From contig JBOIDR010000002.1 of assembly GCA_050740695.1 (NCBI GenBank), forward strand, positions 3,307-67,306: a stretch of DNA of 64,000 nt, in the 5' to 3' direction. The notes under the pieces were generated by a model. That model had not been told where the DNA came from, searched no databases, and saw nothing but the letters and a program-made list of their open reading frames with translations. This DNA comes from Gammaproteobacteria bacterium. Its GTDB lineage: Bacteria > Pseudomonadota > Gammaproteobacteria > JACCXJ01. Made by a program: the position numbers and the translations under genes. Shown here piece after piece: positions 1-29,395 of the stretch; position 1 is the stretch's first letter, and every line of letters begins with the position of its first letter.

Positions 1-710
1 AGATAGACGAGGACTATCGCAAACGCAAACAGGTATTCTCCGGCGTACAGGTGTGGGCGATCGGTCAGTTGATGGCGGTGGAGAGGTTCCTGAAATTGCT
101 GGCCAGCCCCAAGTATCGGGGCATCGGCCCGTGGCCGGAGCTGGCGTTCTATGATTGCCACGCCTGCCACCACCCGATGAGCGATCGGCGCTGGCGGCCA
201 CGCGAGCTGACCCGTGCGCTCGGGCCCGGCGTGGTGCGGCTCAACGACGCCAATTTCCTGATCCTGAGCCAGATAGCGGGCCGACTCGCCCCCGATCTCG
301 GTGAGCGCTTCAAGCGTGCCGTCGAAGACCTGCACCAGGCGACGGTAAAGGACCAGGCCTCGGTGCAGGCCGCGGCCGCCCGGCTCGGCGAGGTGACGGC
401 GAACCTGCGCGGGATCCTGGTCCAGCACAGCTTCTCCGCCGCCGACATGAAGGCGATGTTGCAAGTCATGGCGAGCCAGGGGGCCTCCGGAGAGTACAAC
501 GACTACGGGGCTGCGGAACAGGCCGTGATGGCGATGGCGTCGATCAAGGACGTGCTCGAAGAGACCGGGTCGTTGACGGCGGGCGAGAAGGCCGATCTCA
601 CGGCGCTCATGAGCAGGCTCTACGCGGTCCTCGAAGACCCCGATAAGTATCGGCCCGAGCAGCTGTCGGCGGTTCTCCAAACCCTGGCGGGTCGGACCCC
701 GAGGTCGTGA
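1..710 (+). CDS. Partial ORF, 5' end outside window. Hypothetical protein with one CxxCH (heme c-binding) motif, possibly a c-type cytochrome.
   Basis: The reading frame is open from the window start; the listed ORF begins at GTG at position 51 with no upstream stop. It contains DCHACHH (CxxCH). No other recognisable domain. Confidence 0.4.
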   Translation, partial: IDEDYRKRKQVFSGVQVWAIGQLMAVERFLKLLASPKYRGIGPWPELAFYDCHACHHPMSDRRWRPRELTRALGPGVVRLNDANFLILSQIAGRLAPDLGERFKRAVEDLHQATVKDQASVQAAAARLGEVTANLRGILVQHSFSAADMKAMLQVMASQGASGEYNDYGAAEQAVMAMASIKDVLEETGSLTAGEKADLTALMSRLYAVLEDPDKYRPEQLSAVLQTLAGRTPRS

Positions 711-776
711 CGTCTCCATGGCCATCGGGATCCGATCGGGACCTATTAGAAAACCGGCACGGCACCCGTCCCCCGC

Positions 777-3209
777 ATGGCGGCAAAAGCCTATAAGATA
801 GCGGTCATCGGTGCCGGCCCGGCGGGACTGAGCGCGGCTGCGCGGGCCGCCGAGGTCGGGGTTTCGCACGTCCTCCTGGAGGCCGCGCCACACCTCTCCA
901 ATACCATCTATCGCTATCAGAAGGGCAAGCTGGTAATGGCGGAGCCCACCGTCCTGCCCTTGCGCAGCAGCATCGGTTTCGAAGCCGGCTCGCGCGAGCG
1001 CGTGCTGTCGGTGTGGGATGAGGCCAAAGAACGGCTGCGCGTCAATGTGCGGCATGGGGCCGAGGTCGCGGTCGTCGGGGGGGCACCAGGCAACTTCAGC
1101 GTGAGCCTCACCGGCGGCGAGGTCGTGAACGCCGAGTTCGTGGTGCTGGCAACCGGCCTGCAAGGCAACTTGCGCAAGCTCGGTGTGCCCGGGGAAAACC
1201 TGCCCTTCGTGCAATATCAGCTCGACGACCCGGACGAATACGAGAACGAGACCATCGTCGTGGTCGGGGCCGGGGACTCCGCCATCGAGAACGCCGTCGC
1301 GCTGTCCGCGCACAACAAGGTTGTCGTTATCAACCGCCGTGATGATTTCGACAAGGCAAAAGAAGGCAATCGCAACGGAATCGAGCGGGCCATCCAGGAC
1401 GGCGTCATCGAGTGCCTCTATAACACCGCCCCGGTGCGGGTCGAGGCGGCCTCCGGCCGGAACGGGAAACCGGGTGTCCTGGTCGTCAAGACGGCGAGCG
1501 GCGAGGTGGCACTGGACTGCGATCGCGTCATCGCGCGCCTAGGCGCCATGCCGCCCCGGAAGTTCGTCGAGTCCTGCGGGATCGAGTTTCCCAACGATGA
1601 CCCGAACGCCGTGCCGGCCGTCAGCGCCCAATATGAATCCAATGTCCCGGGCCTTTACATCATCGGTGCGCTGGCCGGTTATCCGCTCATCAAGCAGGCC
1701 ATGAACCAAGGCTATGAGGTGGTCGAGTTCATCGACGGCCGGGCCATCGAGCCGGCCGACGAACCGGTGTTGCGCGACAAGTTCCGCGCCGTGGTCGAGA
1801 TCCGCAGCGTGGCCTCGGCCCTGGAAGTCATCAAGAAGAACGTCCCGGTCCTATCGGGCCTGACCACCTTGCAGTTGCGCGAGTTTCTGCTCGACAGCGC
1901 GATCCGGGCGCCGAAACGCGGCGAGGTCCTGTTCGAGCGCAATGATTACTCGGATAGCTTCTTTTCGATCGTGCGCGGCGGGGTCGATATCCATATCGAT
2001 CCGAACGACGCCTCCAAGCGCGTGGCTTTGACGAAAGGCGACTTTTTCGGCGAGATGGGCCTCATCTCCGGACGCCGCCGTAACGCCACGGTGACGGCGG
2101 GTGAGCGTTGCATCTTGATCGAGACACCGCGGCGTTCGATGAACAAGCTGATCAATTCGGTGGCCTCGGTCAAGGGTTTCATCGACGGCACCTTCCTGCG
2201 CCGCGCGATTCAATCGCAGATCGCGCCGGAGCTGCCCGCCGAGGCCCTGCGGGAGGTGGTGGCGAGCGCCCGCATCGAGCGCTTCGATGCCGGCAAGGTG
2301 TTGTTCAAGGAGGGCGATCCCGGGGACAGCCTGCACTTGATCCGCAAGGGCTCGGTCACCGTGGCGCGCGACATCGGGGGGCGGGAACGGGTGCTCTCCT
2401 ATGTGGCGGCCGGCAATTATATTGGAGAGATGGCGCTTTTGACCGACAGCCCCCGTTCCGCGACGGTGCGTGCGGCGATCGAAACGGAGACCATCCGGCT
2501 CGAAGGCGCGGCCTTCAAGGCCCTGCTCTCGCGTTGGCCGGATATCCAGGCCAAGATGCAGAGCAAGGCCCGGGATCTCTTGGCGGGGCAGTCGGTCAAG
2601 GTGCAAGAGACCCCCGAGGGCGCGGGCGATCTCATCTCCTTCCTGGTGAATCAAGGGGTCGGCGAAGCAACGGACGTGTTGCTCATCGACGAGACCCTGT
2701 GTGTGCGGTGCGATCACTGCGAAAAGGCCTGCGCCGAAACCCATGGCGGTACCTCGCGCCTGGACCGCGAGGCCGGACCGACCTTCGCGTACATCCATGT
2801 TCCGACCTCGTGCCGACACTGCGAGCACCCGCACTGCATGAAGGACTGCCCGCCGGATGCCCTGCGCCGGGCACCCAATGGCGAGGTCATTATCCTGGAC
2901 AGTTGCATCGGTTGCGGGAATTGCGAGACCAATTGCCCCTATGGCGTCATCCAGATGGCGGTGAAGGAAGAGCCGAAGCCCGTGAATCTCTTGTCGTGGT
3001 TCTTGTTCGGCAAAGGCAGGGCGCCCGGAGAGGAGATCTCCGCCCATCACGATGCCGGGGCAGCGAAGATAGCCACCAAGTGCGATATGTGTAAGGACCT
3101 GGCCGGGGGTCCCGCCTGCGTGCGGGCCTGTCCCACGGGCGCGGCGATACGCGTGAGCCCGGAACAGTTCCTGACGGTGACGCGCGGCACGACTCTCGAC
3201 AGGTCCTAG
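777..3209 (+). CDS. Multidomain redox protein. It has an N-terminal FAD/NAD(P)-binding pyridine nucleotide-disulfide oxidoreductase domain, two cyclic-nucleotide-binding (cNMP/CAP-like) domains, and C-terminal tandem 4Fe-4S ferredoxin-type dicluster domains.
   Basis: A GxGxxG Rossmann motif (VIGAGPAGLSAA) near the N-terminus, with a second dinucleotide motif VVGAGDSAIE. Two cNMP-binding signatures: FGEMGLISGRRRNATVTA and GEMALLTDSPRSATVRA. Four Cys clusters of CxxCxxCxxxC(P) type: CVRCDHCEKAC, CRHCEHPHCMKDCP, CIGCGNCETNCP, and CDMCKD...CVRACP. Confidence 0.7.
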   Translation: MAAKAYKIAVIGAGPAGLSAAARAAEVGVSHVLLEAAPHLSNTIYRYQKGKLVMAEPTVLPLRSSIGFEAGSRERVLSVWDEAKERLRVNVRHGAEVAVVGGAPGNFSVSLTGGEVVNAEFVVLATGLQGNLRKLGVPGENLPFVQYQLDDPDEYENETIVVVGAGDSAIENAVALSAHNKVVVINRRDDFDKAKEGNRNGIERAIQDGVIECLYNTAPVRVEAASGRNGKPGVLVVKTASGEVALDCDRVIARLGAMPPRKFVESCGIEFPNDDPNAVPAVSAQYESNVPGLYIIGALAGYPLIKQAMNQGYEVVEFIDGRAIEPADEPVLRDKFRAVVEIRSVASALEVIKKNVPVLSGLTTLQLREFLLDSAIRAPKRGEVLFERNDYSDSFFSIVRGGVDIHIDPNDASKRVALTKGDFFGEMGLISGRRRNATVTAGERCILIETPRRSMNKLINSVASVKGFIDGTFLRRAIQSQIAPELPAEALREVVASARIERFDAGKVLFKEGDPGDSLHLIRKGSVTVARDIGGRERVLSYVAAGNYIGEMALLTDSPRSATVRAAIETETIRLEGAAFKALLSRWPDIQAKMQSKARDLLAGQSVKVQETPEGAGDLISFLVNQGVGEATDVLLIDETLCVRCDHCEKACAETHGGTSRLDREAGPTFAYIHVPTSCRHCEHPHCMKDCPPDALRRAPNGEVIILDSCIGCGNCETNCPYGVIQMAVKEEPKPVNLLSWFLFGKGRAPGEEISAHHDAGAAKIATKCDMCKDLAGGPACVRACPTGAAIRVSPEQFLTVTRGTTLDRS

Positions 3210-3229
3210 GGACGAGCGGGGGACGAGCG

Positions 3230-4150
3230 GTGCACGAGTCGTTTCTGGCTTACCGCAAGTTCTTGTATCTCAAGCTCGGCTTGGGGCTCATCGTGCTCTC
3301 GATCCTGGCCTACGCGCTGCACGATCCGCCCCACGGCCCGAACGGGGGGACGTGGCTGGGCTATACCCTGGGCACCATCGGTGCCGGTCTCATTATCTGG
3401 CTGCTCTGGTACGGGGTCCGCAAGCGCCAGTATCACTCGAAGCTCGGCCAGGTGTCCGGGTGGCTGTCGGGCCATGTGTATCTCGGGTCGGCACTCTTGG
3501 TCGTCGCCACCCTGCATGCTGCATTCAAATTTGGCTGGAACGTGCATACCTTGAGTTACGTGCTCATGATCATGGTCATCGTGAGCGGTGCCTACGGGAT
3601 TTTTACCTATGTCCGGTATCCCACGCGCCTGACGGACAACAAGGGCGGCATGGCGATCGACGCCATGCTGAAGGAGATCGGCGATCTGGACGGGCAATGC
3701 CTCCGGATCGCGGCGGAGATGGGTGACAAGGTCCATCAGATGATCCTGCGCTCCATCGAACGCACTTCTTTCGGAAGGACTCCGTGGCGCGATGCGATGG
3801 GCGGTGTGGGCCAGGGGCTCGAGGACCTCGCCCGTGAGATCAAGTCCATCGCCGGTGACGCCCCGACACAGGCGCCGCTGCCGGCCGCCGCCGCGCCGGC
3901 CGCGGCCGGCGAGTCCACGGTGTACTTCGTGGCCGATCAATTCGCCAGTCTCCGCGACCGCGCCCAGGCCGCGCTGGGCCACCGCCTGCTCGACCTCATC
4001 ACCAGCAAAAAGGCCCTGGTGATCCGGGTGCAGCGCGATATCGTCTACCGCAAATTACTCAATTCCTGGCTTTATCTCCACCTGCCCTTGTCTATTGCGC
4101 TGCTCGCGGCCCTGACCGTTCACGTGGTCACGGTCTTCTTCTACTGGTAA
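3230..4150 (+). CDS. Integral membrane protein, hypothetical, with about six predicted TM helices.
   Basis: Several long hydrophobic stretches (LGLGLIVLSILAYAL, IGAGLIIWLLWYGV, ALLVVATL, LMIMVIVSGAYGIF, LPLSIALLAALTVHVV). GTG start 20 nt after the upstream stop. Same strand and tightly packed with its neighbours. Confidence 0.5.
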   Translation: MHESFLAYRKFLYLKLGLGLIVLSILAYALHDPPHGPNGGTWLGYTLGTIGAGLIIWLLWYGVRKRQYHSKLGQVSGWLSGHVYLGSALLVVATLHAAFKFGWNVHTLSYVLMIMVIVSGAYGIFTYVRYPTRLTDNKGGMAIDAMLKEIGDLDGQCLRIAAEMGDKVHQMILRSIERTSFGRTPWRDAMGGVGQGLEDLAREIKSIAGDAPTQAPLPAAAAPAAAGESTVYFVADQFASLRDRAQAALGHRLLDLITSKKALVIRVQRDIVYRKLLNSWLYLHLPLSIALLAALTVHVVTVFFYW

Positions 4151-4159
4151 GCGCCGTCG

Positions 4160-6046
4160 ATGCGTTGCCTGTTACGCGCCGTCGTCCGGAGGAGTCGAGG
4201 TGTCGTCTCCCATCAGGACCGAGGGTTCGAAGGCGAGCATCTCACCATCGGGCGGTCGACGGACCAGGACCTGGAGCTTCCGGACCTGCGCGTGGCCCTG
4301 CACCATGCCACGGTGGTCGCGGCGGGCGCCGGCCGTTTCGTGATCCAGTCGGCGGTGCCCTCCGGGATCCGTCACAACGACGAGCCCGTCCAATCCGCCT
4401 TCCTGGAAGTGGGCGATCAGGTGAGCATCGGCGATCACCGCATCACCGTGCGGCCTCCGGAGGGCGCTCATGAGCTCTGCCTGGAGATCGCGCAGGTGCG
4501 TGCCGATCCCGGCCAGGAGGTCGAGAAGCGCGTCGCGTCGGCCTCGGGCAGCGGCCCGGAAAAGGGCCTGCGCCTGGGCGTGCGCGGCTGGTCCTGGATC
4601 CTCGGCATGGCGATCCTCACGCTGTTCTTCGTCGTGCCGCTCGTCGCTCGCCAGTCGGAGGCGATCCAGGGGTTCCTGCGCGGGGTCATCCCTGGCGTGA
4701 GCGATCACGCGTGGAGCACCGGGGGGCTCACGGAGGGCCATCGGTATTTCGGCGACGACTGCAACAAGTGCCACGAACGGGCCTTCGTCTCGGTACGCGC
4801 GAGCGCCTGCGTCGAATGCCACAAGGACCAGCCGCATCACTTCGATGTCGAGCGTTTCAAGGTCCCGGCCCTCGCCGACAAGCAATGCGCCGCTTGCCAT
4901 AAAGAGCACGGCGGGGCGCCGGCCCTGACCCGGCAGGACGAGGGCCTGTGTCTCGACTGCCACCGCGATATGCAGGAGACGGCGGCGGATTCGAAGCTCC
5001 TGGACATCCGCGGGGGCTTCGCGGAGGACCACCCGGAGTTTCGCGCCACCTTCGTCACCCACACGGACGGAAAAGACCGGTCCGAGCGCATCGAAATCGA
5101 CCGGCGCATTGTCCCGAAGGAGCGCTCCAACCTGTTCTTCCCCCACAAGACCCATCTCGACAAGACCGGGGTCCAGGGGCCCGATGGCAAGGTGGTGCTG
5201 AGCTGCGCGAGCTGCCACGTCCCCGAACCAGGGGGACGGCTTATGGCGCCCATCCGCTTCGAGCAGCATTGCCATCGCTGCCACCAGCTCACCTTTGAGA
5301 TCGACGATCCGAAGCGCGAGGTGCCTCACGGCCATGTCGGTCGGGTGCTCGACGGCCTCGAGGCCTATTACGGCCTGCGTACCCTGGAACGGGCCGATAT
5401 CGATACCGGCGAGCCGGAGGTCCTGTCCCGGCGCCGCCCCGGGCGGCAGGCGGTCCCGCCGGAGCGCTCCGAGGGCCTGGAGAGTGCGGCGCGGCGGGCG
5501 CGGCAAGCGGGCAAGGAGCTTTTCGAGTATCGCGCCTGCGCGACCTGCCACCAGGTCGATGAGAAGGCCCAATCGGTCTTCGGGTGGGACATCGTGCCGG
5601 TGCGCATCGCCCGCACCTGGTACCCCAAGGCCGGCTTCGACCACGGCCGGCACGCCACGGTGGCCTGCGCGCGCTGCCATGGCTTCCGACCCGCCGATTG
5701 CGCCGCCTCTACATCGCCCCCCTCTACATCAAGTAGGGCGGTGGCGGATCCCGAGAAGGGCGCGGCCGATTGCAACAAGGGCGTGGCCGATTCCGAGAAG
5801 AGCGAGGATGTCCTCATCACCGGTATCGCGACCTGCCGGGAGTGCCATGGCGATCCCGGGGCAAAGGATCGGGTTCAGTCGACCTGCATCTTCTGCCACG
5901 ATTTCCATATCTCGCCGAGGTTCGCGATGGATGGCCGGGCGCGGACCAGACCGGGCGACCTAGCCCCCCCTCGGCAGGCGGCGGCGGTGCCGTCGGCCGA
6001 TCTCACGGATCTCCCGGCCGGCCAGGCGCGGATGGGGCAGCAGTGA
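4160..6046 (+). CDS. FHA-domain protein fused, through one TM helix, to a decaheme c-type cytochrome.
   Basis: The N-terminal roughly 110 aa match the FHA fold pattern (GRSTDQDLELPDLRVALHHATVV...DEPV...FLEVGDQVSIGDHRITV). There is one hydrophobic helix (WSWILGMAILTLFFVVPLVA). Ten CxxCH motifs follow: CNKCH, CVECH, CAACH, CLDCH, CASCH, CHRCH, CATCH, CARCH, CRECH, CIFCH. Confidence 0.65.
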   Translation: MRCLLRAVVRRSRGVVSHQDRGFEGEHLTIGRSTDQDLELPDLRVALHHATVVAAGAGRFVIQSAVPSGIRHNDEPVQSAFLEVGDQVSIGDHRITVRPPEGAHELCLEIAQVRADPGQEVEKRVASASGSGPEKGLRLGVRGWSWILGMAILTLFFVVPLVARQSEAIQGFLRGVIPGVSDHAWSTGGLTEGHRYFGDDCNKCHERAFVSVRASACVECHKDQPHHFDVERFKVPALADKQCAACHKEHGGAPALTRQDEGLCLDCHRDMQETAADSKLLDIRGGFAEDHPEFRATFVTHTDGKDRSERIEIDRRIVPKERSNLFFPHKTHLDKTGVQGPDGKVVLSCASCHVPEPGGRLMAPIRFEQHCHRCHQLTFEIDDPKREVPHGHVGRVLDGLEAYYGLRTLERADIDTGEPEVLSRRRPGRQAVPPERSEGLESAARRARQAGKELFEYRACATCHQVDEKAQSVFGWDIVPVRIARTWYPKAGFDHGRHATVACARCHGFRPADCAASTSPPSTSSRAVADPEKGAADCNKGVADSEKSEDVLITGIATCRECHGDPGAKDRVQSTCIFCHDFHISPRFAMDGRARTRPGDLAPPRQAAAVPSADLTDLPAGQARMGQQ

Positions 6047-6218
6047 TGGCGCCGTGTTGGCACGGAACCGGCCTTCCGGGGTATTTTCTGGTGCCGGTGA
6101 ATCTTTCGCGCTGGCGTGCTAACTTAGGGTGGGTGTCAGGGATCGAGCCGGACGGGCTCGAATGGGTTCCCGTATGGCGAATCGGCACTTGTTTCGGGTC
6201 TCGGGTCGAACTCGGTCG

Positions 6219-7013
6219 ATGAAGACTGCGGCGGATCCGCGCCTGTCGCCCGGGCTCAAGTGCCGGATAGACGCGAGTATCGCGACCGACACCGGTTGCC
6301 AGCGCGATCACAATGAGGACCACATCGACTTCTTCGCGGCCGATGACCCCGTGGTACGGAGCAGCAAGGGTGCCCTTGCGGTGGTCGCCGACGGTATGGG
6401 AGGGCACCTCGCGGGCGGTCTGGCGAGCGAACTGGCCGTCCAGGTCGCGCGCCGCACCTACTACCAGGAACCGGGAGAAGGCCGCAAGGCCCTAGAGACC
6501 GCCCTGCAGAGGGCGAACCGGGAGATCTATGAGCTGTCGCTCACGGACGAGGCCTATCATGGCATGGGGACCACGTGCACGGCGCTGGTGTTGACGGGAT
6601 CGCTCGCCCACTGCGCCCACGTCGGCGACAGCCGCCTGTATCTCATCCGCGACGGTCAGATCCGTCTGATGACGGAAGACCACTCCCTGGTTCGGGAGAT
6701 GGTCAAGGCCGGGATCCTGAGCCCCGAGCAGGCGCGCTCTCACCCCAACAGAAACGTGATCTCCAGGGCCTTGGGGGTGCGTCCCAGTGTCGATCTTTTC
6801 TTCTGGCAGGACCCCATGGAGCTCTGCGACGGCGATACCTTCGTCCTGTGTTCCGATGGCCTGCACGACCCCGTGCGCGAAGACGAGATCCTTGGTGTGT
6901 GCGTGGCAGAGGCGTCCGAGGCGGCGTGCCGGAGTCTGGTAGACCTGGCGAAACAGCGCGGCGGCCACGACAACATCAGCGTGGGGGTCTTCCGGGTGAG
7001 AGCCGAGGAGTGA
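6219..7013 (+). CDS. PP2C-family (PPM) Ser/Thr protein phosphatase.
   Basis: PPM motifs are present: DTGCQRDHNEDH, VVADGMGGH, GTTCTALV, LCSDGL, GGHDNISV. The start was chosen at MKTAADP; the ORF can also open at position 6129. Confidence 0.75.
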   Translation: MKTAADPRLSPGLKCRIDASIATDTGCQRDHNEDHIDFFAADDPVVRSSKGALAVVADGMGGHLAGGLASELAVQVARRTYYQEPGEGRKALETALQRANREIYELSLTDEAYHGMGTTCTALVLTGSLAHCAHVGDSRLYLIRDGQIRLMTEDHSLVREMVKAGILSPEQARSHPNRNVISRALGVRPSVDLFFWQDPMELCDGDTFVLCSDGLHDPVREDEILGVCVAEASEAACRSLVDLAKQRGGHDNISVGVFRVRAEE

Positions 7014-7048
7014 AAGGGCGGCGGCGCCGTGGGCCATAGATAGCCACC

Positions 7049-10000
7049 ATGATCAACGAAGTGATCGCCAACTGCTACCAGATCGTCGAGAAGATCGGCG
7101 AGGGTGGGATGGGGGAGGTGTTCCGGGGTGTGGACATCAACCTCGATCGCGATGTCGCCATCAAGGTCATGCGTACCGAGCTCGCCCGCCGGCCCGAGAT
7201 CCTCCAGCGTTTCCGCAAGGAAGCGGTCGTCCTAGCCAAGCTCAACCATTCCAATATCGCGACCCTCTACAACTTCATCCATGACGGTAACAACTATTAC
7301 ATGGTCATGGAGTTCGCGCCGGGTCAGACCCTCGACGTCCTCGTCGCGGATTGCGTCGGGGGGCTGCCGTGGCGATACGCGCTGGAGCTGTTCATGGATG
7401 CGCTCCGGGCCATCGACCACGCCCATAAGCAGGGCATCATCCACCGTGACATCAAGCCGGCCAACATGATGGTCAGCAAGCGCGATACCCTGAAGGTTCT
7501 GGACTTCGGGATCGCGCGCGTCCTGGGAGAATCCGGATTCACCAAGGCGGGCATCGTGGTCGGAACGACCAAGTACATGTCCCCCGAACAGATCCTCGGC
7601 CGCAGCATCGATACGCGTTCGGATATCTACGCGCTCGGGATCGTGCTCTACAAGATGCTCACCGGGCATGTGCCCTTCGAGGGCCTGGGTGAGTTCGAGC
7701 TCATGAAGGCGCAGGTCGAGGACCGCGCCCTGCCGGTACGCCAGATCATTCCGGATCTGCCCGAAGCGGTTGACGAGGCCATAATGCGGTCCCTGGAGAA
7801 GGCGCCGGAAGACCGATTTCAGCGGGCCTCCGAATTCATTGCCGCATTGGTGCCGATACTGCGCGACGATGTTGCCGACTGGGAGTCGCACCGCAGAGAC
7901 TTGCGCGACCAGGAGTCGGGCCCGCGTGCGCCTCGGCAGCGGGGCGGGCAGAAACGCCCGGTGGTCATCGACGGCAACCTGGCGCGCAAGCAGGCCGAGA
8001 TGCCCACTTCGAGCAGCCGCAGCGGGCTCATGGACGATGCCTATCAGCCACCTCCCCGTCAGGCCTCCCCCCGTCAGATGCCGACCCGTCAGTCCACCCC
8101 GGCCCCGAGGCTCGAGGTGGTTCGCACGCCGGTGCCGGCGAGCGCGTCCCAGGTGCCGACGCAGGCTTTGGACACGCGGGTCGCAGCGGAGATCACACCT
8201 CCGCTGCGACCACGCGTCCCGGTGACGGCCGAGGCCGGGGCCACCACGGTCGATGAGCCGTCCATCTTTGGGACCCGGGTCGGGACGAAGGTCATGGGGA
8301 CCGGGAAACCCGTCGCACCGCCCACACCCTCGTGGCGTGCCCGGATCGGTGAGGGGTTGCGGCCGGTCTTGGGATGGCTGTCGCGGCTCGGATGGCGGCG
8401 CGTCGCGGGTGCCGCGCTGGGACTCGCCGTACTGGCGGGCGTATCGCTGGGGGTCCGTGAGCTGATGCGACCTCCCGATCCTGAGGAGATCGCGCTGTGG
8501 CTCGCACAGGCGAAGCAGGCGCTGGCGGCGGGGAAGGTTGGGCCCGGAGACACGGCCGTGTCTCTGGCACAGGATGTCTTGAAATGGGTACCGGACCACG
8601 GCGAAGCGAGAGACGTCGTGCTCGCGGCGGTCGCCCGTCTCGTGAGCGCCGGCCAGTCGGCGCTCCAACAGGGCAAACTGAGCGACGCGAAAGCGCGGCT
8701 TGCCGAGGCGGAGACTTTGGTCAGGGACCCCGCGCTGGAGAACCCTAAGCTGGACAAGCGCAGTGTGGCGGCGCTCGCGGGCGGTATCGCCGCCGAGGAG
8801 TCGCGGCGCACCGCGATCGAAAGAGCAGAACGGGAGAAAGCGGAACGGGAACGCCGTATCGGCGAGCTGATCGCGGCCTCGCGGGCGGCGCTTGCGTCGG
8901 AGAAGTTCGCGGAGGCCGCGGCGCGAGCCCAGGAGGTCTTGGGCCTGGTGCCGGACCAGGCCGAGGCGCGCCAGATCCTCGACGATGCGCTCCAAGGGGC
9001 GCTCAAGGGCATGGAAGAGGCGCTCGCCCGCGGCGATCTTGCAGCGGTCGGCGCCCGTGAAGCGGAGGCGCGTGCCCTGGTGCAGCAGTACGGTCTACCC
9101 GAGGCGAAGCTCAACGACTTGGCCGCACGGCGCGCTAGAGAAGCGCAGCGACAGGCCGAGGAAGAGGAACGCCTGGCGGGGCAGAAGCGCGCCGTGGAAG
9201 AGCGGACGGCGCGTGTCCGGGGGCTGCTGGACAAGGCGCAGGCGGCCGCCGAGGCGGGCCGCTGGACGGTCCCGCCCGAGGACAGCGCCGTCGGGTATGC
9301 GGGGGCGGTCCTGGGCCTCGAACCCAAGAGCACCGAGGCCTTGCGGGTGATCGGCGATGCCGTCGATGCCGTGGTCGATGAGGCCGATGGTGCGCTCGGG
9401 GCCGGTGATATGGCAACGGCCAAGGCCCGGCGTGACGCGGCCGCGAAACTGGCCTCCACCTACCAGGTGCCGAGCCAGAGCATCGCGAAGCTGTCCGAGC
9501 GGATCACCGAGGCCGAACGTCTAGCCCGCGAGGCAGAGGACGAGGCCGCGCGCCTTGCCCGCGAGACGCAAGAGAAGAAAGCGGCGCTGGTGGCCCGCGA
9601 AGCGAAAATCGAGGATCTGATCGAAAAGGCCACTCGGGCCATCGCCCAGGACCGCTTGACGGCGCCCGCGAACGACAACGCCATGAAACACGTACGCGAT
9701 CTGGTCAGCCTGGATCCGGGGAACGTAGAGGCGCAGGGCCTTGCTGCCGGGGTGCGCGACCGTTACATTGCACTGGCCGACAAGGCCGTGGCCGATGCCC
9801 ACTTCACAAAGGCTCGTGATCTCGAGCGCCAGGCGGGCGAGATCGCCTCCGAGTTTCGCCTGAGTGCCGACCCGATCCGTGATCTCGCGGCCCGGATCGC
9901 GGCCGCCGAGGACAGCAATGCGAGCGCCGTGATCGAGTCGCGCGAAAAAGCCGAGCGCGACAGGGCGGCAGAAGAAAGGCTGACGCAGCAGAAGGCTGAG

Positions 10001-10540
10001 GAGGCTCGGGCGGAACGCGACAGGCTGGAGCGAGAAAAGCTCGCCCGGCAGAATGCGGAGCAGGGGGAGGCCCGCCGCCGCGAGCAGCAGCTCGCGGATC
10101 TACGCAAGAAGGCGAGGTCGGCGCTGGCCGGCAACCGGCTGACCCGTCCCCGGGGTAACAACGCCGTGGAGCTTGCCGCCCAGATGCTTACCCTGGATAA
10201 AGGCCGCAACGAAGGCCTTCAGATCCTCCAAGAGGTGGTAGGCCGCTATGTGGCGATGGGTGAGCTGGCCGTCGCCGGCGAGGATCTCGCGGTGGCGGAC
10301 GATCATTATCGGGCCGCCGAGCGCGTCGTGAAGGATTACCGGTTGCCGGACGCGGAACTTCGTCGGCTGGATCGGCGTCTTACGGCCAAACGACAAGAGA
10401 TCGCCGAAGTGGAACGGCGTGCGCGTGATAAGCGGACGCCGATCGTCTCGTCGCCGCCCGCGGAGGTTTCGCCCCCGGCGGATCCGCCGAAGAAAGCGGA
10501 CGGGGGGAGGTCGAGAGTATTCGTGCCCCCTTCGTTCTAG
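7049..10540 (+). CDS. Hanks-type Ser/Thr protein kinase. It has one TM segment and a very long C-terminal extracytoplasmic Ala/Glu/Arg-rich coiled-coil region, with roughly 38-aa repeats, that ends in FVPPSF.
   Basis: Kinase subdomains: GxGxxG-like EKIGEGGMGEV, VAIK, HRDIKPANM, DFGIA, SPEQ. A hydrophobic segment (AALGLAVLAGVSLGV) at about aa 450. Repeats of the RLTxPxxNNA...L.L.PG..EA..L...V..RY type occur at least three times. Confidence 0.8.
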   Translation: MINEVIANCYQIVEKIGEGGMGEVFRGVDINLDRDVAIKVMRTELARRPEILQRFRKEAVVLAKLNHSNIATLYNFIHDGNNYYMVMEFAPGQTLDVLVADCVGGLPWRYALELFMDALRAIDHAHKQGIIHRDIKPANMMVSKRDTLKVLDFGIARVLGESGFTKAGIVVGTTKYMSPEQILGRSIDTRSDIYALGIVLYKMLTGHVPFEGLGEFELMKAQVEDRALPVRQIIPDLPEAVDEAIMRSLEKAPEDRFQRASEFIAALVPILRDDVADWESHRRDLRDQESGPRAPRQRGGQKRPVVIDGNLARKQAEMPTSSSRSGLMDDAYQPPPRQASPRQMPTRQSTPAPRLEVVRTPVPASASQVPTQALDTRVAAEITPPLRPRVPVTAEAGATTVDEPSIFGTRVGTKVMGTGKPVAPPTPSWRARIGEGLRPVLGWLSRLGWRRVAGAALGLAVLAGVSLGVRELMRPPDPEEIALWLAQAKQALAAGKVGPGDTAVSLAQDVLKWVPDHGEARDVVLAAVARLVSAGQSALQQGKLSDAKARLAEAETLVRDPALENPKLDKRSVAALAGGIAAEESRRTAIERAEREKAERERRIGELIAASRAALASEKFAEAAARAQEVLGLVPDQAEARQILDDALQGALKGMEEALARGDLAAVGAREAEARALVQQYGLPEAKLNDLAARRAREAQRQAEEEERLAGQKRAVEERTARVRGLLDKAQAAAEAGRWTVPPEDSAVGYAGAVLGLEPKSTEALRVIGDAVDAVVDEADGALGAGDMATAKARRDAAAKLASTYQVPSQSIAKLSERITEAERLAREAEDEAARLARETQEKKAALVAREAKIEDLIEKATRAIAQDRLTAPANDNAMKHVRDLVSLDPGNVEAQGLAAGVRDRYIALADKAVADAHFTKARDLERQAGEIASEFRLSADPIRDLAARIAAAEDSNASAVIESREKAERDRAAEERLTQQKAEEARAERDRLEREKLARQNAEQGEARRREQQLADLRKKARSALAGNRLTRPRGNNAVELAAQMLTLDKGRNEGLQILQEVVGRYVAMGELAVAGEDLAVADDHYRAAERVVKDYRLPDAELRRLDRRLTAKRQEIAEVERRARDKRTPIVSSPPAEVSPPADPPKKADGGRSRVFVPPSF

Positions 10541-10620
10541 ATTATTACAGAACTTCAAACTGTACGAGACGAATTCGACGATGTAGAAGTCCCTTCTCTC
10601 GCGGGGGGAGACAGGTTAGG

Positions 10621-11457
10621 ATGAGGGAATTTCCAATGTGTTTCAATAGATTCAGCTTGTTTCGAGGTCTCTGCATGACCATTATGTCAATTAATGTCCG
10701 GCGCGGAATGCTCGCGTGGGTATTCGTGCTCGCGGCTTACCCGGGGCTCTCCGCGGGCGCCGAACAGAAGCGCCCGGCTCCATCCGCTCGCATTGCAGCG
10801 ATTCTCGTCCAGGCGGAGCGCGCCCTGGCGGAGGATCGGCTCACCCTGCCCTCGGGCCATAATGCCGTCTCCTATGCCCAAAAGGTGCTGGACCTCGCGC
10901 CCGGCCACCCCGCAGCCCAAGGGATCCTTCGCGCCGTTGTCACACGCTACGGGCTCATCGCCGGTGCCGCTCTGGACCGGGCCGAGGCGCTGAGGCGTCA
11001 GGAACTAGCCAGGGCGCAGGCGTATCGATCGCGAGGGGAGGGCGTGGCGCATCGGTTCAATCTTAGCACGGTGCCCTTGAGTGCCGTCGCGGAGCGCATG
11101 GATGGCGTGAAGGCTCGTCCCCATGGGACGAGCGTGGTGGATAATTCAACGATCATTATCGGGCAACGCCAGCCCCCGGCGGACCGAGTGCTCGACCGAC
11201 TGGTCGGCAAGTACCTATATGAGAGTGAGATCGCACTGGAGGGTGGCCGGGTGCACGATGCCCGGCGCTACTGGGAGGTCGCCGCTCAGATCGCGATGGA
11301 TCACCGGGTTTCGAATCCGGGCCTCGACGGGCTCGAGCGCCGTGTCGCCGCGGCCGAGCAGGAACGGGACGAGGGCCGGGTCCGGGCGCGTGAGGACGCC
11401 CGCCTTTCTGCGCAGGGCCGGTTGCTCAAGGCCGTATTCATTCCGCCCAGCTTTTAG
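10621..11457 (+). CDS. Secreted or periplasmic repeat-domain protein. It shares the repeat module and the C-terminal FIPPSF motif with the upstream kinase. The start may be internal (MSINV...).
   Basis: Signal-peptide-like MLAWVFVLAAYPGLSAGA. RLTLPSGHNAVSYAQKVLDLAPGHPAAQGILRAVVTRYG matches the kinase repeats. The protein ends ...VFIPPSF, and the kinase ends ...VFVPPSF. Confidence 0.5.
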   Translation: MREFPMCFNRFSLFRGLCMTIMSINVRRGMLAWVFVLAAYPGLSAGAEQKRPAPSARIAAILVQAERALAEDRLTLPSGHNAVSYAQKVLDLAPGHPAAQGILRAVVTRYGLIAGAALDRAEALRRQELARAQAYRSRGEGVAHRFNLSTVPLSAVAERMDGVKARPHGTSVVDNSTIIIGQRQPPADRVLDRLVGKYLYESEIALEGGRVHDARRYWEVAAQIAMDHRVSNPGLDGLERRVAAAEQERDEGRVRAREDARLSAQGRLLKAVFIPPSF

Positions 11458-12510
<1,053 letters not shown>

Positions 12511-12552
12511 GAGGTTGTGAAAAACCGTCGCGAGCGACTGCACGGGCGTGGG

Positions 12553-13962
<1,410 letters not shown>

Positions 13963-18972: not shown

Positions 18973-19401
18973 GAACAACCTCCTTTGAAAGAGCCGACCC
19001 TTGTTTGTTGTGACGCCCAACGTGGCTGGTAAGCGGCGTACCGTAGGCATGTCCGCTTGACCTGCGGGTGTACGCCCAACATGGGCCGCACTTATGGGGC
19101 GAAAGTCCCCGGTAGGAGTACCGGTAATGTCCTCTTGTAGGACAAAGGTAACTACGAGGCGAAAACAAGGGTAATCCCGCGAGAGGTGGTCTGAAGGAAG
19201 CCCGAGCGCAAAAGTGCGAGCCGACGACAAAATCGCCGGAAGCGATTTTGAAGCGCTCTGTCGAGGGTCCGCATTGTCACGGTGTTTCTCGTTGCAAGAG
19301 CGCGACAGTATGCCGTGTACTGACTCCAGAGTTGGAAGTCGTAGAACGACGGCTTACTGCACTCATAGGGTGAATCAGGCGCGGCCGGGTGGTGGGTTTT
19401 A

Positions 19402-20544: not shown

Positions 20545-21357
20545 TTACCAGATCGTGAACCCCCCGTCGACGATGAGGTTCGCGCCGCTCATATAGGCCG
20601 AGGCCTCGGAGGCCAGGAACACCAGCGCGCCTCGATAGTCCGTGGGCGCCGCCATGCGGCCGAGCGGCGTGCGGCGACCGTATTCCGCGACGAAGAAATC
20701 GTCCTGGCCGTTCTCGACCCCGCCGGGTGAAAGTGCATTGACGCGCACTCCACTAGCGCCCCAGTAGGCCGCGAGGAAGCGGGTGAAGGACAGCACCGCG
20801 CCCTTGCTGGTCGGGTAGGCGGGGGACTTGTAGAAACGCCGGCGGCCCTCGGGGTCGAGATAGAGCGATTGATCGGGGGCCACGACACCGTAGGTCGAGG
20901 CGATGTTGACGATGCTGCCGCGCCCGGTCTTGGCCATGTGCGTACCGATCACCTGTGAGGAGAGAAAGACCCCGGTCACGTTGACCTTGAGGACCTGTTC
21001 CCAGAGATCCAGCGGATAACGCTCGAAGCGCGACGATTCCAGCGCGGTGAACGGATCCTCGTAGCGGTCGTTCAGCGCCGCGTTGTTGACGAGCACGTCC
21101 ACCCTTCCTGTGATCGAGAGCACCGCCGCCAGCAGGATTTTGAGGGACTCGGGATCGCTCACGTCGGCCCGATGGCCGAAGGCACCGCCCCCGATCTCGG
21201 CGGCCAGGTGTTCGCACGCGGCGGCATCGAGGTCCGTCGCCACCACCCGGGCCCCTGCCTCCACCAGGGCGCGGCAGTGCTCGCGGCCCAGCAGACCGGT
21301 CGCGCCGGTCACGATCGCGGTCCGACCCTCTAACGAGAAGAGCTCCGTCGTGCTCAT
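20545..21357 (-). CDS. Short-chain dehydrogenase/reductase (SDR) family oxidoreductase.
   Basis: TAIVTGATGLLG (TGxxxGxG), NNAA and YxxxK-type motifs. The start ATG overlaps the upstream stop (ATGA). Confidence 0.8.
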   Translation of the reverse strand: MSTTELFSLEGRTAIVTGATGLLGREHCRALVEAGARVVATDLDAAACEHLAAEIGGGAFGHRADVSDPESLKILLAAVLSITGRVDVLVNNAALNDRYEDPFTALESSRFERYPLDLWEQVLKVNVTGVFLSSQVIGTHMAKTGRGSIVNIASTYGVVAPDQSLYLDPEGRRRFYKSPAYPTSKGAVLSFTRFLAAYWGASGVRVNALSPGGVENGQDDFFVAEYGRRTPLGRMAAPTDYRGALVFLASEASAYMSGANLIVDGGFTIW

Positions 21358-22718
21358 CACCCCTCCCGTGCCTCTGCCCGCGGCTTGGTATTGAGCCCGC
21401 CGGTCTTGCGGAACACCGGCTCGATCGGCGCCCCCTCGAGCGACTCCGAGACCCGCCCGGCATCGACCGCCTCTTCGAGGACGCCGAGCGCCTCGCCAAA
21501 GGCGGCGAGTGTGTAGTCGATGTCCTCTTGTGTATGGGAGTCGCAGAGGTTGTGGATGCCGGTCCACAAGACCCCGCGCCGGATCAGCTCCTGCTGGACC
21601 AGGGTCTTTAGGACCAGCGGATCACCGGCCCGGGTATCGTCCGCTGGGGTATCAAAACCGACCAGCGTCCGGAACGGATAGCCCGTGACCGAGACAAAAT
21701 CGAGCCCGAGCCTCCCGATGAGCCGTTGCAGGCCCTCCAGGAGCGACTGGCCGCGCAGGGCGATGCGCTCGATGACCCCGTGATCGCGGAGGTAGCGGAT
21801 GCAGGCGATCGAGGCGGCGAGCGACAGGGTCTCGCCGCCGAAGGTGGTGAAGAAAAACACATCTTTTTCCAGGAGCGACATCACGTCCCGTCGGCCGGTC
21901 ACGGCCGAGATCGGCATGCCGTTGGCCATGGCCTTGGAGAACAGCGACAGGTCCGAGCGCACCCCCAGGAACGCCTGGGCCCCGCCGAGGGCACAGCGGA
22001 AGCCCGTCCACATCTCGTCGAAGATGAGGAGCGCGCCGTTCCGATCGCAGAGCCGCCGCAGCTCCGCGAGAAAACCGCCTTGCTCGCGCTCGAAGGTGAA
22101 GGGCTCCAGGATCACGCAGGCGGTGTCGGTATCGAGCGCCGCGAGCACCGAATCGATGTCGTTGTAGCGGAAGGTGCCGGTCAGCTCGGCGGTCGCCACC
22201 GGGATGCCGGCGGCCCGATCGGTCACGGCGATGTACCAGTCGTGCCAGCCATGATAACCGCAGCACAGCACCCGCTCGCGCCCGGTGTAGGCGCGCGCCA
22301 ACCGCACCGCGGCGCTCGTCGCGTCGCAACCGGTCTTCGAAAAACGCACGGATTCGGCATGGGGCACGATCTCGCGCAGGAGCTCCGCCAGCTCGACCTC
22401 CAAGGGGTGCATGAGCGAGAAGGTGATCCCGTCTTCGAGCTGGCGGCGGATGGCCTCGTCCACCGCCGGGTGGCAGTAGCCCAGGATGATGGGACCGATG
22501 CCCATGTTGAAATCGAGAAACTCGTTGCCGTCCACGTCCCACACCCGCGCGCCGCGGCCGCGCGCGAGGTACTTGGGCGCTACGCCCCGAGAGAACTGCG
22601 TGGGTCCCTTGGCGAGGGTCTGGGTGCCCGCCGGGATGAGCCCCTGCGCCCGCGCCCAGAGGGCGTCCGAGCGCTCGATAGAAGGCAGTTCGGGGTTGGA
22701 TTGGACTCGGTTCGGCAT
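21357..22718 (-). CDS. Class III (PLP-dependent) aminotransferase, glutamate-1-semialdehyde aminomutase-like.
   Basis: Full-length match to the class III aminotransferase fold, including LIFDEMWTGFR and SKAMANGMPISAV (Schiff-base Lys region). Confidence 0.8.
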   Translation of the reverse strand: MPNRVQSNPELPSIERSDALWARAQGLIPAGTQTLAKGPTQFSRGVAPKYLARGRGARVWDVDGNEFLDFNMGIGPIILGYCHPAVDEAIRRQLEDGITFSLMHPLEVELAELLREIVPHAESVRFSKTGCDATSAAVRLARAYTGRERVLCCGYHGWHDWYIAVTDRAAGIPVATAELTGTFRYNDIDSVLAALDTDTACVILEPFTFEREQGGFLAELRRLCDRNGALLIFDEMWTGFRCALGGAQAFLGVRSDLSLFSKAMANGMPISAVTGRRDVMSLLEKDVFFFTTFGGETLSLAASIACIRYLRDHGVIERIALRGQSLLEGLQRLIGRLGLDFVSVTGYPFRTLVGFDTPADDTRAGDPLVLKTLVQQELIRRGVLWTGIHNLCDSHTQEDIDYTLAAFGEALGVLEEAVDAGRVSESLEGAPIEPVFRKTGGLNTKPRAEAREG

Positions 22719-27848: not shown

Positions 27849-28592
27849 TCACGACAAGAAATGGTGCACGACTAAGAGTAATAATCCACTGCAGTAGAAA
27901 ATGATATTTAGACCATACAACTCGATACTGTCGGCAAGCTGCGAAAACCCACCCACTCCACAGCTCACGGGGATTTCTCGGACATGCTTAGTTTTTGAAT
28001 AGAAAAATGTGTCTGATTCGCGAAGTGTTAATTCTACGAGAGCTATGGACCACTTACTACCAATAAGCCAGTTCCAGACGAGAAGATATATTGAAATAAG
28101 GCAGTAGGAGATAAAAGAACCAATCGGCTTGATAGAAAAAGGGACGCACGCAACTACCAGAGTTGCACCAAATAGGTAATAGAGCCATGTAGTCGGATCT
28201 TTCGCGCTCATCAAATAAATCAGCGATCCTTCGCTAATCGGATGACGCCTCATTAGTCCGCGAAACAGCAAGGGCCCGGCCAGCGTAAGCTCGTCAAACA
28301 ATGACCTGCATTCTTGTAAGGATTGCTTTTCCCTAAAAGCGAAAAGGGAATTAACAAAATGCTCGGCGCAGAACTTGTGCGCAATAGTCATGATCAGAAC
28401 TGCTATCCAAGCTTGCGCCGTTGAAAGCTCTACGTCGCCTACTTTGAACGTGGACTTTCCAGTCAGTTTCAACGCCACGATTGTCAGGGTTAGGGTTGCA
28501 AAAAAGATAAGCACCTTGCCAAGAAGTTCTGCATTACTTGAAGCCGCTGCCTTCAGAACGTCGTCCTTCTTATCGATTTTTTTCTGCGGCAT
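27849..28592 (-). CDS. Low-GC polytopic membrane protein of unknown function.
   Basis: GC is about 40-45% against a 67% background. Four or five hydrophobic helices. No recognisable motif. Confidence 0.5.
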   Translation of the reverse strand: MPQKKIDKKDDVLKAAASSNAELLGKVLIFFATLTLTIVALKLTGKSTFKVGDVELSTAQAWIAVLIMTIAHKFCAEHFVNSLFAFREKQSLQECRSLFDELTLAGPLLFRGLMRRHPISEGSLIYLMSAKDPTTWLYYLFGATLVVACVPFSIKPIGSFISYCLISIYLLVWNWLIGSKWSIALVELTLRESDTFFYSKTKHVREIPVSCGVGGFSQLADSIELYGLNIIFYCSGLLLLVVHHFLS

Positions 28593-28705
28593 ATGGTCAC
28601 TTGGACTGGTCAGTGGAAATAGATCTGGGAGTTGGTCTTATCGGGCAGTATGGTCCTGAAGCGGAAAAGAGTCAAGGAGCCGGATGGACGCAAGGCCGTC
28701 TGCGG

Positions 28706-29062: not shown

Positions 29063-29112
29063 CTTCCCTTTTTTGCGATGAGCGTAGTCCCGCCAACGGA
29101 AACGGAGCGAAT

Positions 29113-29395
29113 AGGGATTTTAAACGTCCTTTTTATAAGAAGCAGAGTACTGCTCGGCTTCGTGAGCTGTCAAGCATACGGGTCCGCGGCCTCGGATCGG
29201 GCCCTTCCTTCGGCCCGAGGCGCTATGTTTCGGGACGTTTTGGGGTCTCGGGCGAGCGAGGGCCAAGAGGAGCTCAGGGGCTGAGCCGGATGAGAGGGGG
29301 GTCGGTGGGGGATCAGGCCTGTTGGAATCGATCGAAGGCCCTGGCCGCTGCTCGGGCGGACATGCCAAGATGCTTGAGGATCTTGGCAATCACGG
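29113..29395. repeat. Copy B of the approximately 290-bp repeat (see 23535..23830).
   Basis: Direct sequence comparison. Confidence 0.7.

Follow-up and report, generated by a model that had tools for sequence, protein, structure and literature searches.

The current analysis concerns a cluster of seven genes at positions 1-11457 on the + strand of a 64,000-nucleotide (nt) stretch of gammaproteobacterial DNA (contig JBOIDR010000002.1), the whole of which is referred to here as the window. On balance, the cluster is probably best viewed as two units placed side by side. Unit A (genes 1-4) would form a conduit that is regulated by cyclic nucleoside monophosphates (cNMP) and leads electrons from NAD(P)H to the periplasm, and unit B (genes 5-7) would be a lineage-specific signalling neighbour. 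Unit A is a member of a widespread, uncharacterised module of the Ptd/NHC type, and the locus as a whole represents a known system of uncharacterised function, in a variant that is reduced to four genes and linked to a kinase. A previous interpretation of the same DNA, made from its letters without database searches (the sequence-only reading), had proposed a phosphothreonine-gated transmembrane redox module that it did not recognise as any described system. Its basic idea of a transmembrane electron-transfer module, linking cytoplasmic flavin, iron-sulfur (FeS), and cNMP domains to periplasmic hemes, is supported by the di-heme b signature of gene 3 and by the conserved synteny of genes 2, 3, and 4; with respect to phosphothreonine gating and novelty, it overreaches.

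All seven open reading frames (ORFs; <1-710, 777-3209, 3230-4150, 4160-6046, 6129-7013, 7049-10540, and 10621-11457) are encoded in the same direction, and all of the domains previously attributed to them are present according to the ORF calls, Pfam, and NCBIfam, with profile searches bearing out the FHA, PP2C, kinase, and heme-binding assignments. As called, successive ORFs from gene 1 to gene 7 are separated by 66, 20, 9, 82, 35, and 80 nt, such that the spacing inside genes 1-4 amounts to 9-66 nt. The products of genes 2, 4, and 6 are found verbatim at NCBI as MGH8562620, MGH8562622, and MGH8562624, from an uncultured gammaproteobacterial metagenome-assembled genome (MAG), where they carry generic names only and where five genes appear to be numbered consecutively (MGH8562620-624).

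One of the key elements of the putative conduit is gene 3 (3230..4150), which encodes a PtdF-like protein of 306 amino acids (aa) with five transmembrane (TM) segments and without a Pfam match at normal thresholds. Its earlier description as a polytopic membrane protein was accurate as far as it went, but has to be extended by a di-heme b signature. Among 15 locus-derived and 61 database homologues, four His residues are invariant, forming two H-x13-H pairs on two TM helices (H82/H96, nt 3446-3520; H284/H298, nt 4052-4144). Such a bis-His, two-heme pattern is classical for cytochrome b, b561, and ferric-reductase domains. The predicted fold matches those of STEAP, cytochrome b, b561, CybB, and NOX5, and weak matches to PF01292 were obtained for 56 of the 61 family members (best E 1.2e-6), compared with three for PF01794. 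The protein of the window itself scores 12.6 bits against PF01292, below the cut-off of 30.1, and would be at most a remote relative of that family. Because of the four invariant His residues, the fold matches, and the weak PF01292 matches, gene 3 is predicted to be a di-heme b cytochrome. By our own reading of the positive-inside rule, its ~140-aa insert (aa 130-270) would be cytoplasmic. The gene 3 family is also a large one, with >2,700 matches.

On the cytoplasmic side, gene 2 (777..3209) encodes an 810-aa protein of three parts. The first (nt 792-1712) is a TrxR/YpdA/FNR-like domain for flavin adenine dinucleotide (FAD) and reduced nicotinamide adenine dinucleotide (phosphate), NAD(P)H, as judged by its Pfam/NCBIfam matches (Pyr_redox_2/3, E 2e-27 to 7e-32) and by YpdA/TrxR/FNR sequence matches in the PDB; it contains the Rossmann motifs GAGPAG and GAGDSA..INRRDDF, and no CxxC. 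Stretches of the INRRDDF type are typical of NADPH sites, which suggests that NADPH may be the preferred cofactor. The second part (nt 1902-2564), situated between the flavin and FeS domains, is a tandem of PKA-R-like cyclic nucleotide-binding (CNB) domains (two cNMP_binding matches at 1e-38; PF00027, 131.6 bits over two stretches; PKA/PKG CNB tandems in the PDB). Both of its phosphate-binding cassettes (GE...R-x-A-T) are intact in the translation, namely FGEMGLISGRRRNAT and IGEMALLTDSPRSAT, legible as GE..RNAT and GE..PRSAT. The third part (nt 2679-3164) is a HycB/FdnH-like polyferredoxin recognised by its Cys spacing and its PDB matches (HycB), with Fer4 matches in Pfam and additional matches to HDCR electron-wire subunits and to FdnH/DmsB/NrfC-type models. 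Since its 16 Cys residues (positions 642-785) fall into four Cys4 groups and the matches are of the HycB/FdnH type, up to four [4Fe-4S] clusters are to be expected. Thus, the fusion of an FAD domain, two cNMP-binding domains, and an FeS domain seen previously is genuine, but the two clusters assigned to it fall short of the four Cys4 motifs.

The periplasmic side is represented by genes 4 and 1. Gene 4 (4160..6046; 628 aa) corresponds to PtdG and to the NHC protein and has the architecture formerly proposed for it, i.e. a cytoplasmic FHA domain (nt 4160-4495; PF00498, E 1.4e-5, 25.9 bits against a cut-off of 20.7), one TM helix (nt 4580-4654), and a periplasmic decaheme c domain (nt 4739-5908) with cytochrome c7/c3 Pfam matches and exactly 10 CxxCH motifs. 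Among 45 homologues, none of the 10 motifs varies, nor do several distal His residues. A word-indexed search with gene 4 gave 98 matches, and a full profile scan at E<=1e-30 recovered 2,163 representative clusters of the decaheme family (clustered at 50% identity), with the FHA domain included in ~140 of the top 150, as their alignments begin within the first few profile positions. Gene 1 (1..710) was noted before as a CxxCH protein; the motif is indeed there, once inside the window, but the ORF is truncated at its 5' end by the window edge, there being no in-frame stop upstream, such that its start lies beyond the edge and only the C-terminal 235 aa are seen. Its full-length homologues are secreted, Cytochrome_C554-like proteins of 424-469 aa with four CxxCH motifs (PF13435 at 2e-11), which would make gene 1 a periplasmic, PtdD-like tetraheme cytochrome of ~450 aa.

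Conservation was assessed in 28 loci, ~20 of them distinct, that were retrieved in part via a 6-sequence alignment of gene 4 and are referred to below by handles such as L008. They span the Gammaproteobacteria (USC-gamma Chromatiales, Lysobacterales, Salinisphaeraceae), a betaproteobacterium, the Rhodospirillaceae, and the Planctomycetota. The gene 2-3-4 triad is syntenic in ~18 distinct loci of Gamma-, Beta-, and Alphaproteobacteria and Planctomycetota, in which the genes are separated by 9-25 nt or overlap, and gene 1 adjoins the triad or lies within 10 kb of it in 12 loci. Only the clade to which the window belongs has the PP2C gene, the kinase gene, and gene 7 after gene 4, namely L008 (88-97% identity), L024 (85-95%), and L025 (57% for the gene 4 C-terminus, 88% for the kinase domain, and 55% for gene 7), each with the order PP2C, kinase, gene 7, hemB, ntrCB. 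In at least 12 further distinct loci, PP2C, kinase, and gene 7 are all missing from the 10 kb around the module. The three genes are lacking in the nearest relatives outside the clade, L006 (51% identity) and L004 (46%), as well as in all of the more distant loci, and one homologue of gene 7 (45% identity) occurs in isolation. The seven genes are therefore not conserved as a unit; it is genes 2-4, usually together with gene 1, that are syntenic, whereas the remaining three are clade-limited. In L024, the closest of the long relatives, the kinase is called as two ORFs (9430-9828; 1,044 + 118 aa), the second of which is an in-frame continuation of the ectodomain by tblastn; this split probably does not reflect a genuine difference, but a frameshift or faulty assembly.

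The module also varies in its composition. In 10-12 loci, gene 4 is followed by three further conserved genes, which encode an HbpS-like lipoprotein (~650 aa), an unannotated ~600-aa protein, and a ~1,270-aa decaheme/LVIVD-propeller protein with 10 CxxCH motifs. Examples can be found in L001 (11762-19841), L005 (12820-20460), L023 (11770-19656), and 7-9 further loci, and in L023 all seven genes of module and extension overlap start-to-stop. None of the three was found in the window by tblastn. The planctomycetal loci L019 and L020 are without both the FHA domain and the FAD domain, and in L027 the FHA and TM part forms a separate gene of 181 aa. A dependence of the FHA domain upon the FAD-domain fusion in gene 2 was considered and rejected, as gene 4 of L028 is FHA-less, yet its gene 2 is full-length and includes the FAD domain.

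The claim that the system had not been described does not hold, since its core matches both ptdC-G (10.1101/2023.11.21.568154) and the NHC cluster (10.64898/2026.01.22.701106). This core has appeared in three manuscripts, as the ptd operon (2024), as the Ferrigenium NHC cluster (2026), and in a Gallionellaceae table (2023), all of which leave its function unknown. Elbon et al. named a putative porin-cytochrome operon ptdABCDEFG, called its function 'completely unknown', and independently termed PtdF 'ferric reductase-like' (10.1101/2023.11.21.568154). By matching architecture and gene order to the published descriptions, the tetraheme PtdD can be equated with gene 1, the cNMP/4Fe-4S protein PtdE with the C-terminal part of gene 2, the FAD/NAD(P) oxidoreductase PtdC with the N-terminal domain of gene 2, PtdF with gene 3, and the decaheme PtdG with gene 4. 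The window thus contains the consecutive cNMP/4Fe-4S, TM, and ~10-heme genes typical of Ptd/NHC (genes 2-3-4, at 20 and 9 nt) in addition to the tetraheme and FAD/NAD(P) components of Ptd. In contrast to ptd, PtdC and PtdE are fused here in one 810-aa protein, while PP2C, kinase, and gene 7 are not part of ptd and the ptd paper mentions no FHA domain. The pentaheme PtdA and the porin PtdB have no equivalent in the 64-kb window, the region upstream of gene 1 being outside of it; L003 and L004, two related loci, have unrelated genes at the upstream position.

The NHC cluster of Ferrigenium straubiae consists of a [4Fe-4S] protein, a 5-TM protein, and a single-TM multiheme protein with a cytosolic FHA domain (10.64898/2026.01.22.701106, sect. 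6.3.2), i.e. the same three consecutive genes as genes 2-3-4, and its authors regard the fusion of FHA and multiheme domains as previously unreported (10.64898/2026.01.22.701106). Nine hemes were counted there, compared with 10 here, and no redox motif was found in the TM protein, whereas the four His residues and the weak PF01292 matches of gene 3 point to two b hemes. The neighbours differ as well, with nirK and an SHP-like gene in Ferrigenium, and PP2C and kinase here. The Gallionellaceae pangenome contains a table entry for a 'Forkhead-associated protein, 10 hemes' in 27 iron-oxidiser genomes (PMC9900912). A kinase or phosphatase, the di-heme b signature, and degenerate FHA residues are mentioned in none of these sources (10.1101/2023.11.21.568154, 10.64898/2026.01.22.701106, PMC9900912).

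Parallels also exist with better-known membrane complexes. As in the Hmc, Tmc, and DsrMKJOP complexes of sulfate reducers and in the FeS-cytochrome b pairs of the FdnGHI/HybOABC type, a periplasmic multiheme c protein, a membrane di-heme b protein, and a four-Cys4 polyferredoxin together span the membrane, and the FeS domain of gene 2 weakly matches the DsrO, HmcB, FdnH, HybA, and NrfC models, none of which reaches its cut-off. However, the cytoplasmic polyferredoxin is fused here to flavin/NAD(P)H and cNMP domains, there is no subunit with an NrfD-like or CCG domain, and the c-type subunit carries an FHA domain. Relative to the NOX/FRE/STEAP ferric-reductase-domain oxidoreductases and MsrQ, the flavin domain has a TrxR-like rather than an FNR-like fold and belongs to another polypeptide, electrons would pass through an intervening FeS wire and have a multiheme c chain as their acceptor, and the 5-TM gene 3 is closer to PF01292 than to PF01794 (56 vs 3 members).

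From the observed domains, motifs, topology cues, tight gene coupling, synteny, and family size, we infer cofactor binding, the order and direction of electron flow, and the roles of cNMP and FHA as follows. Firstly, NAD(P)H would reduce the FAD of the TrxR/FNR-like domain of gene 2, from which electrons would pass along up to four [4Fe-4S] clusters of the HycB-like domain, cross the membrane via two b hemes on the four invariant His residues of gene 3, be taken up by the ten c hemes of gene 4, which is anchored in the membrane, and proceed to the soluble tetraheme gene 1. Secondly, the CNB tandem would gate this flow allosterically in response to cAMP or cGMP. In L006, a USC-gamma Chromatiales MAG, a class III nucleotidyl cyclase gene (6797-7780, - strand; PF00211, E 6e-16) is convergent on gene 4, and its product could plausibly supply the ligand that the CNB domains of gene 2 bind. 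(An initial assignment of a C-terminal FHA domain to this cyclase was dropped, as Pfam shows only Guanylate_cyc and a PDB sequence search revealed no FHA.) Thirdly, the main role of the FHA domain would be one of docking or regulation that does not depend on phosphorylation, with either the cytoplasmic subunit or the cytoplasmic gene 3 loop as its partner. Electrons would thereby move outward, from a cytoplasmic reductant to a periplasmic acceptor, and this direction is more likely than the reverse because the membrane potential favours electron export through the b-heme pair.

The reverse direction, in which periplasmic or extracellular donors, such as Fe(II) oxidases or reduced minerals, would load the decaheme protein and electrons would continue by way of its single TM helix or of gene 3 to the quinone pool, or through gene 2 to NAD(P)+, seems quite improbable to us for the window. 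It has been proposed for NHC by the Ferrigenium authors, who detected expression of the cluster in Ferrigenium straubiae in each of the Fe(II)-oxidising conditions that they tested (10.64898/2026.01.22.701106), and the occurrence of the family in 27 Gallionellaceae iron-oxidiser genomes agrees with it (PMC9900912). The three extension genes of most other loci, including the decaheme/LVIVD protein, similarly suggest an outward-facing extension; yet the lineage of the window is without these genes, and its 64 kb contain neither a porin nor another CxxCH-rich ORF. From established bioenergetics, inward movement of electrons through a b-heme pair opposes the membrane potential, and the reduction of NAD(P)+ by donors at the level of Fe(II) is strongly uphill. 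A quinone-site motif was likewise not identified.

The role assigned to the FHA domain in unit A follows from its unusual sequence. In the AlphaFold2 (AF2) model, the predicted local distance difference test (pLDDT) score is ~95 over aa 1-112, and Foldseek relates the domain to GarA, OdhI, EmbR, and FhaA with a probability of 1.0 at ~30% identity. Across a 225-member family, the Gly (217/218), the Arg (203/218, or 93%), and the structural His (182/225) of the FHA fold are conserved, whereas the canonical Ser is kept in 13 of 225 (6%; Ala in 131) and the Asn in 10 of 225 (4%). In the window, the HMMER alignment to GarA places A46 at the phosphate-binding Ser, Leu47 at the following Arg, and S68 at the peptide-binding Asn, such that the canonical phosphothreonine-contacting Ser (SxxH) and Asn (S/T-x-N-G loop) are both absent; the kinase-linked clade provides no exception to this loss, and the domain is present in the decaheme subunit regardless of a nearby kinase. 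The FHA domain of gene 4 is hence a fixed, but degenerate one, which has kept Gly, Arg, and His and lost Ser and Asn. Degenerate FHA domains are known as phospho-independent scaffolds in membrane machines, such as YscD/EscD, and the FHA domain of GarA binds metabolic enzymes without phosphorylation; the structures 6i2q and 8p5r are among the matches. Nevertheless, with Arg32 kept in 93% of the sequences, a phospho-ligand of a non-canonical kind is conceivable.

Unit B combines a phosphatase, a kinase, and a secreted paralogue of the kinase ectodomain, all three of which were correctly recognised from sequence alone. Gene 5 (6129..7013) encodes a PP2C Ser/Thr phosphatase of the Stp1 family (Stp1/IreP equivalog NF033484, 237 bits against a cut-off of 230; PF13672 at 5e-17) with the metal-binding motifs VADGMGG, CSDGL, and GGHDNIS. 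Since its homologues are called at 264-269 aa, its start is probably ATG 6174 or 6219 rather than GTG 6129, and the gap between genes 4 and 5 would therefore amount to 127-172 nt. Gene 6 (7049..10540; 1163 aa) encodes a transmembrane Hanks kinase, comprising a kinase domain (nt 7076-7897; Pkinase PF00069 at 8e-53) with intact motifs (the Gly-loop GEGGMGEV, VAIK, HRDIKPAN, DFG, and GTTKYMSPE with its activation-loop TT), a Pro/Thr-rich linker between kinase domain and TM segment (14 Thr in 165 aa), a predicted TM segment (nt 8399-8467), and, on the outer side, five helical repeats of ~106 aa defined by an iterated repeat hidden Markov model (nt 8486-10396). Gene 7 (10621..11457), which likely starts at ATG 10675 or 10684 with a signal peptide ending ..LSAGA/EQ, encodes a secreted protein with 1.6 copies of the same repeat module (36% identity to gene 6 by BLASTP, E 6e-12). 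Neither gene 7 nor the module common to genes 6 and 7 has a Pfam or NCBIfam match, and the gene 7 family is narrow, with 39 clusters and most homologues measuring 245-260 aa. The products of genes 6 and 7 also end in the same heptapeptide, VFVPPSF and VFIPPSF, respectively (nt 10520-10540 and 11437-11457). This ending matches no Pfam/NCBIfam motif and might serve both proteins as a C-terminal signal for sorting or interaction.

The joint occurrence of a membrane-bound Hanks kinase that carries an extracytoplasmic sensor, a phosphatase of the PP2C type, and an FHA protein is reminiscent of PpkA/PppA/Fha1 of the type VI secretion system (T6SS) and of the mycobacterial PknB/PstP-GarA/FhaA/FhaB, and the FHA fold of gene 4 is indeed closest to GarA/OdhI. 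The T6SS analogy previously drawn is apt for the architecture, but does not extend to family membership (TagH/Fha1 TIGR03354, 31 bits against a cut-off of 120.25) or to T6SS neighbours. As had been stated, secretion genes are lacking: no T6SS gene is among the ORFs examined, which reach to ~31 kb, with the rest of the window covered by CxxCH and kinase scans only. Furthermore, the FHA domain here differs from those of the T6SS and mycobacterial systems in being without the canonical Ser/Asn, fused to a cytochrome, and conserved without a nearby kinase.

The junction of the two units, at ~170 nt, contains two features. The first is a GC hairpin with a T-run (6063..6078) just past the gene 4 stop codon, a candidate weak terminator that is seen in the window and in L008, partly in L024, and not in L025. 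The second is the conserved non-coding block GGTGAATCTTTCGCGCTGGCGTGCTAACTTAG (6096..6127), which contains the candidate promoter GTGAAT-17 nt-TAACTT for genes 5-7. In a comparative alignment, these 32 nt are near-invariant in the four loci, including L025 with its 57% gene 4 identity, while the flanks vary. A consensus promoter/terminator scan over 1-12,700 gave counts that were not above shuffle expectation, and the usable signal came from the comparative alignment. The block is probably a separate promoter for genes 5-7, as its conservation suggests, and unit B (the PP2C phosphatase, the Hanks kinase with its five-repeat ectodomain, and the secreted ectodomain paralogue) would accordingly be an independently expressed neighbour that is probably transcribed from a promoter of its own and may feed a phosphothreonine input into unit A.

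A closer coupling, along the lines of the sequence-only reading, in which the kinase would sense a periplasmic signal via its repeat ectodomain, possibly modulated by gene 7, and phosphorylate Thr residues on itself or on the module, PP2C would reverse this, and the FHA domain would bind the phosphothreonine to switch electron transfer or to assemble the complex, is in our estimation unlikely. It would account for the co-directional arrangement of the genes, for the intact catalytic motifs of kinase and phosphatase and the Thr-rich juxtamembrane linker, and for a fold whose nearest relatives (GarA, OdhI, EmbR, FhaA) read phosphothreonine. A candidate site also exists in the disordered cytoplasmic loop of gene 3, where T230 (nt 3917-3931, aa 230-234) is kept in 57 of 61 homologues in a T-phi-phi-F context, within surroundings that are otherwise hypervariable and have a pLDDT below 50. 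This residue could be a phospho-acceptor or an FHA ligand; as it is located at the start of a long helix, it could equally be a mere helix N-cap. A Thr at the C-terminus of gene 2 was also tried as a GarA-like phospho-switch and was ruled out, the tails being unconserved. Two of the three residues by which a canonical FHA domain reads phosphothreonine are, however, almost entirely lost, kinase and PP2C are missing within 10 kb of the module in at least 12 distinct loci, and the hairpin and promoter-like block intervene between genes 4 and 5. Phosphothreonine gating is accordingly possible but unsupported, given an FHA domain without Ser/Asn, a clade-limited kinase, and a ~170-nt gap with a promoter-like block.

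Several observations nonetheless weigh against the separation into two units with a phospho-independent FHA domain and outward flow. 1) The adjacency of PP2C and kinase is maintained in four loci down to 57% gene 4 identity (L025). 2) In L016, a Salinisphaeraceae MAG with 30% gene 4 identity, a PP2C gene and then a canonical FHA gene (GR...SRKH; PF00498 at 2.8e-6) independently follow the gene 1 homologue (20725-21707). The module's own FHA domain has lost even the Arg in this locus, with GC instead of GR, which speaks against its reading phosphothreonine there; together, L016 and L025 argue that phosphothreonine signalling may be functionally tied to the module. 3) Conservation of the FHA Arg at 93% is unexpected for a purely structural domain. 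4) The block at 6096-6127 was not called as a promoter by the consensus scan. 5) Flow in the inward direction, starting from Fe(II) oxidases, is preferred in the Ferrigenium study (10.64898/2026.01.22.701106). A more elaborate scheme is a switchable, NAD(P)H-driven exporter on which two second-messenger systems would converge, in which cNMP would gate the FAD-to-FeS step, and, in this lineage, a phosphothreonine mark set by the periplasm-sensing kinase and PP2C (for instance on T230 of gene 3 or on the kinase linker) would be read by the Arg-only FHA domain as a clutch that couples or uncouples the dehydrogenase and the heme wire. We regard this scheme as distinctly unlikely; if true, it would provide the first example of a multiheme electron conduit in bacteria that is gated directly by phosphorylation on Ser/Thr.

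The signalling-type domains could also be the very purpose of the module, which would then be a redox sensor whose periplasmic hemes report the ambient redox state, with FHA and cNMP serving as output and input, and the kinase/phosphatase pair as transducers. Three such domains (FHA and two CNB) are built into the redox subunits, and signalling genes recur nearby, in the form of the L006 cyclase, the PP2C and FHA genes of L016, and the PP2C and kinase of the window. However, an FAD/NAD(P)H domain, four Cys4 motifs, four b-heme His residues, and 14 c-heme motifs exceed the needs of a sensor, the invariance of all 10 CxxCH motifs and several distal His residues in the 45 gene 4 homologues fits poorly with such a role, and genes 1-4 are without a DNA-binding or enzymatic output domain in Pfam and NCBIfam. 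A sensor is therefore highly improbable, and the arrangement proposed here, an electron conduit with an adjacent signalling unit, remains our preferred explanation.

When considered across species, the core of unit A is among the larger multiheme families without an assigned function (>2,000 clusters at 50% identity), and has representatives among Gammaproteobacteria of soil and groundwater, iron oxidisers, marine Alphaproteobacteria, and Planctomycetota. The proposed wiring would bypass the quinone pool and has its regulatory domains built into the redox subunits. If true, it would represent a bacterial electron exit or entry of a novel, controllable type, with a bearing on extracellular electron transfer, iron and nitrogen cycling, and bioelectrochemistry. 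Relative to the existing literature, the present analysis makes a case for the hitherto anonymous TM subunit being a cytochrome of the b type, and adds a lineage with a kinase, a phosphatase, and a sensor paralogue directly downstream, which offers a candidate input for the FHA domain, even though its non-canonical residues temper the obvious phosphothreonine reading.

The remainder of the window contains no other CxxCH-rich ORF (CxxCH scan of ORFs) and no other kinase, PP2C, FHA, or class III cyclase (phmmer, six queries), and an Rfam scan gave no match related to the cluster. Downstream of gene 7, hemB (11521-12510) is encoded in the same direction, followed by ntrC/ntrB, a DUF4124 gene, and lysA on the - strand; a NeuB-family gene is also among the neighbours. 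Located 63 nt 3' of gene 7, hemB scores 500 bits against NF006762 (porphobilinogen synthase), and its position after gene 7 is also kept in L024 and L025. The placement of a heme-biosynthesis gene beside genes needing at least 16 hemes may be a coincidence. At 19173-19376 (+ strand), just upstream of the NeuB-family gene of the opposite strand, an Rfam match to RF02001 (group II intron D1-D4-3; 36.4 bits, gathering score 32) could stem from a fragment of an intron or be fortuitous. Lastly, the G+C content, which averages ~0.65, is reduced at 28000-30000 (0.57) and at 52900-57100 (0.53-0.60), the latter stretch having neither a long ORF of high GC3 nor an Rfam match, and both stretches may represent foreign or non-coding DNA.

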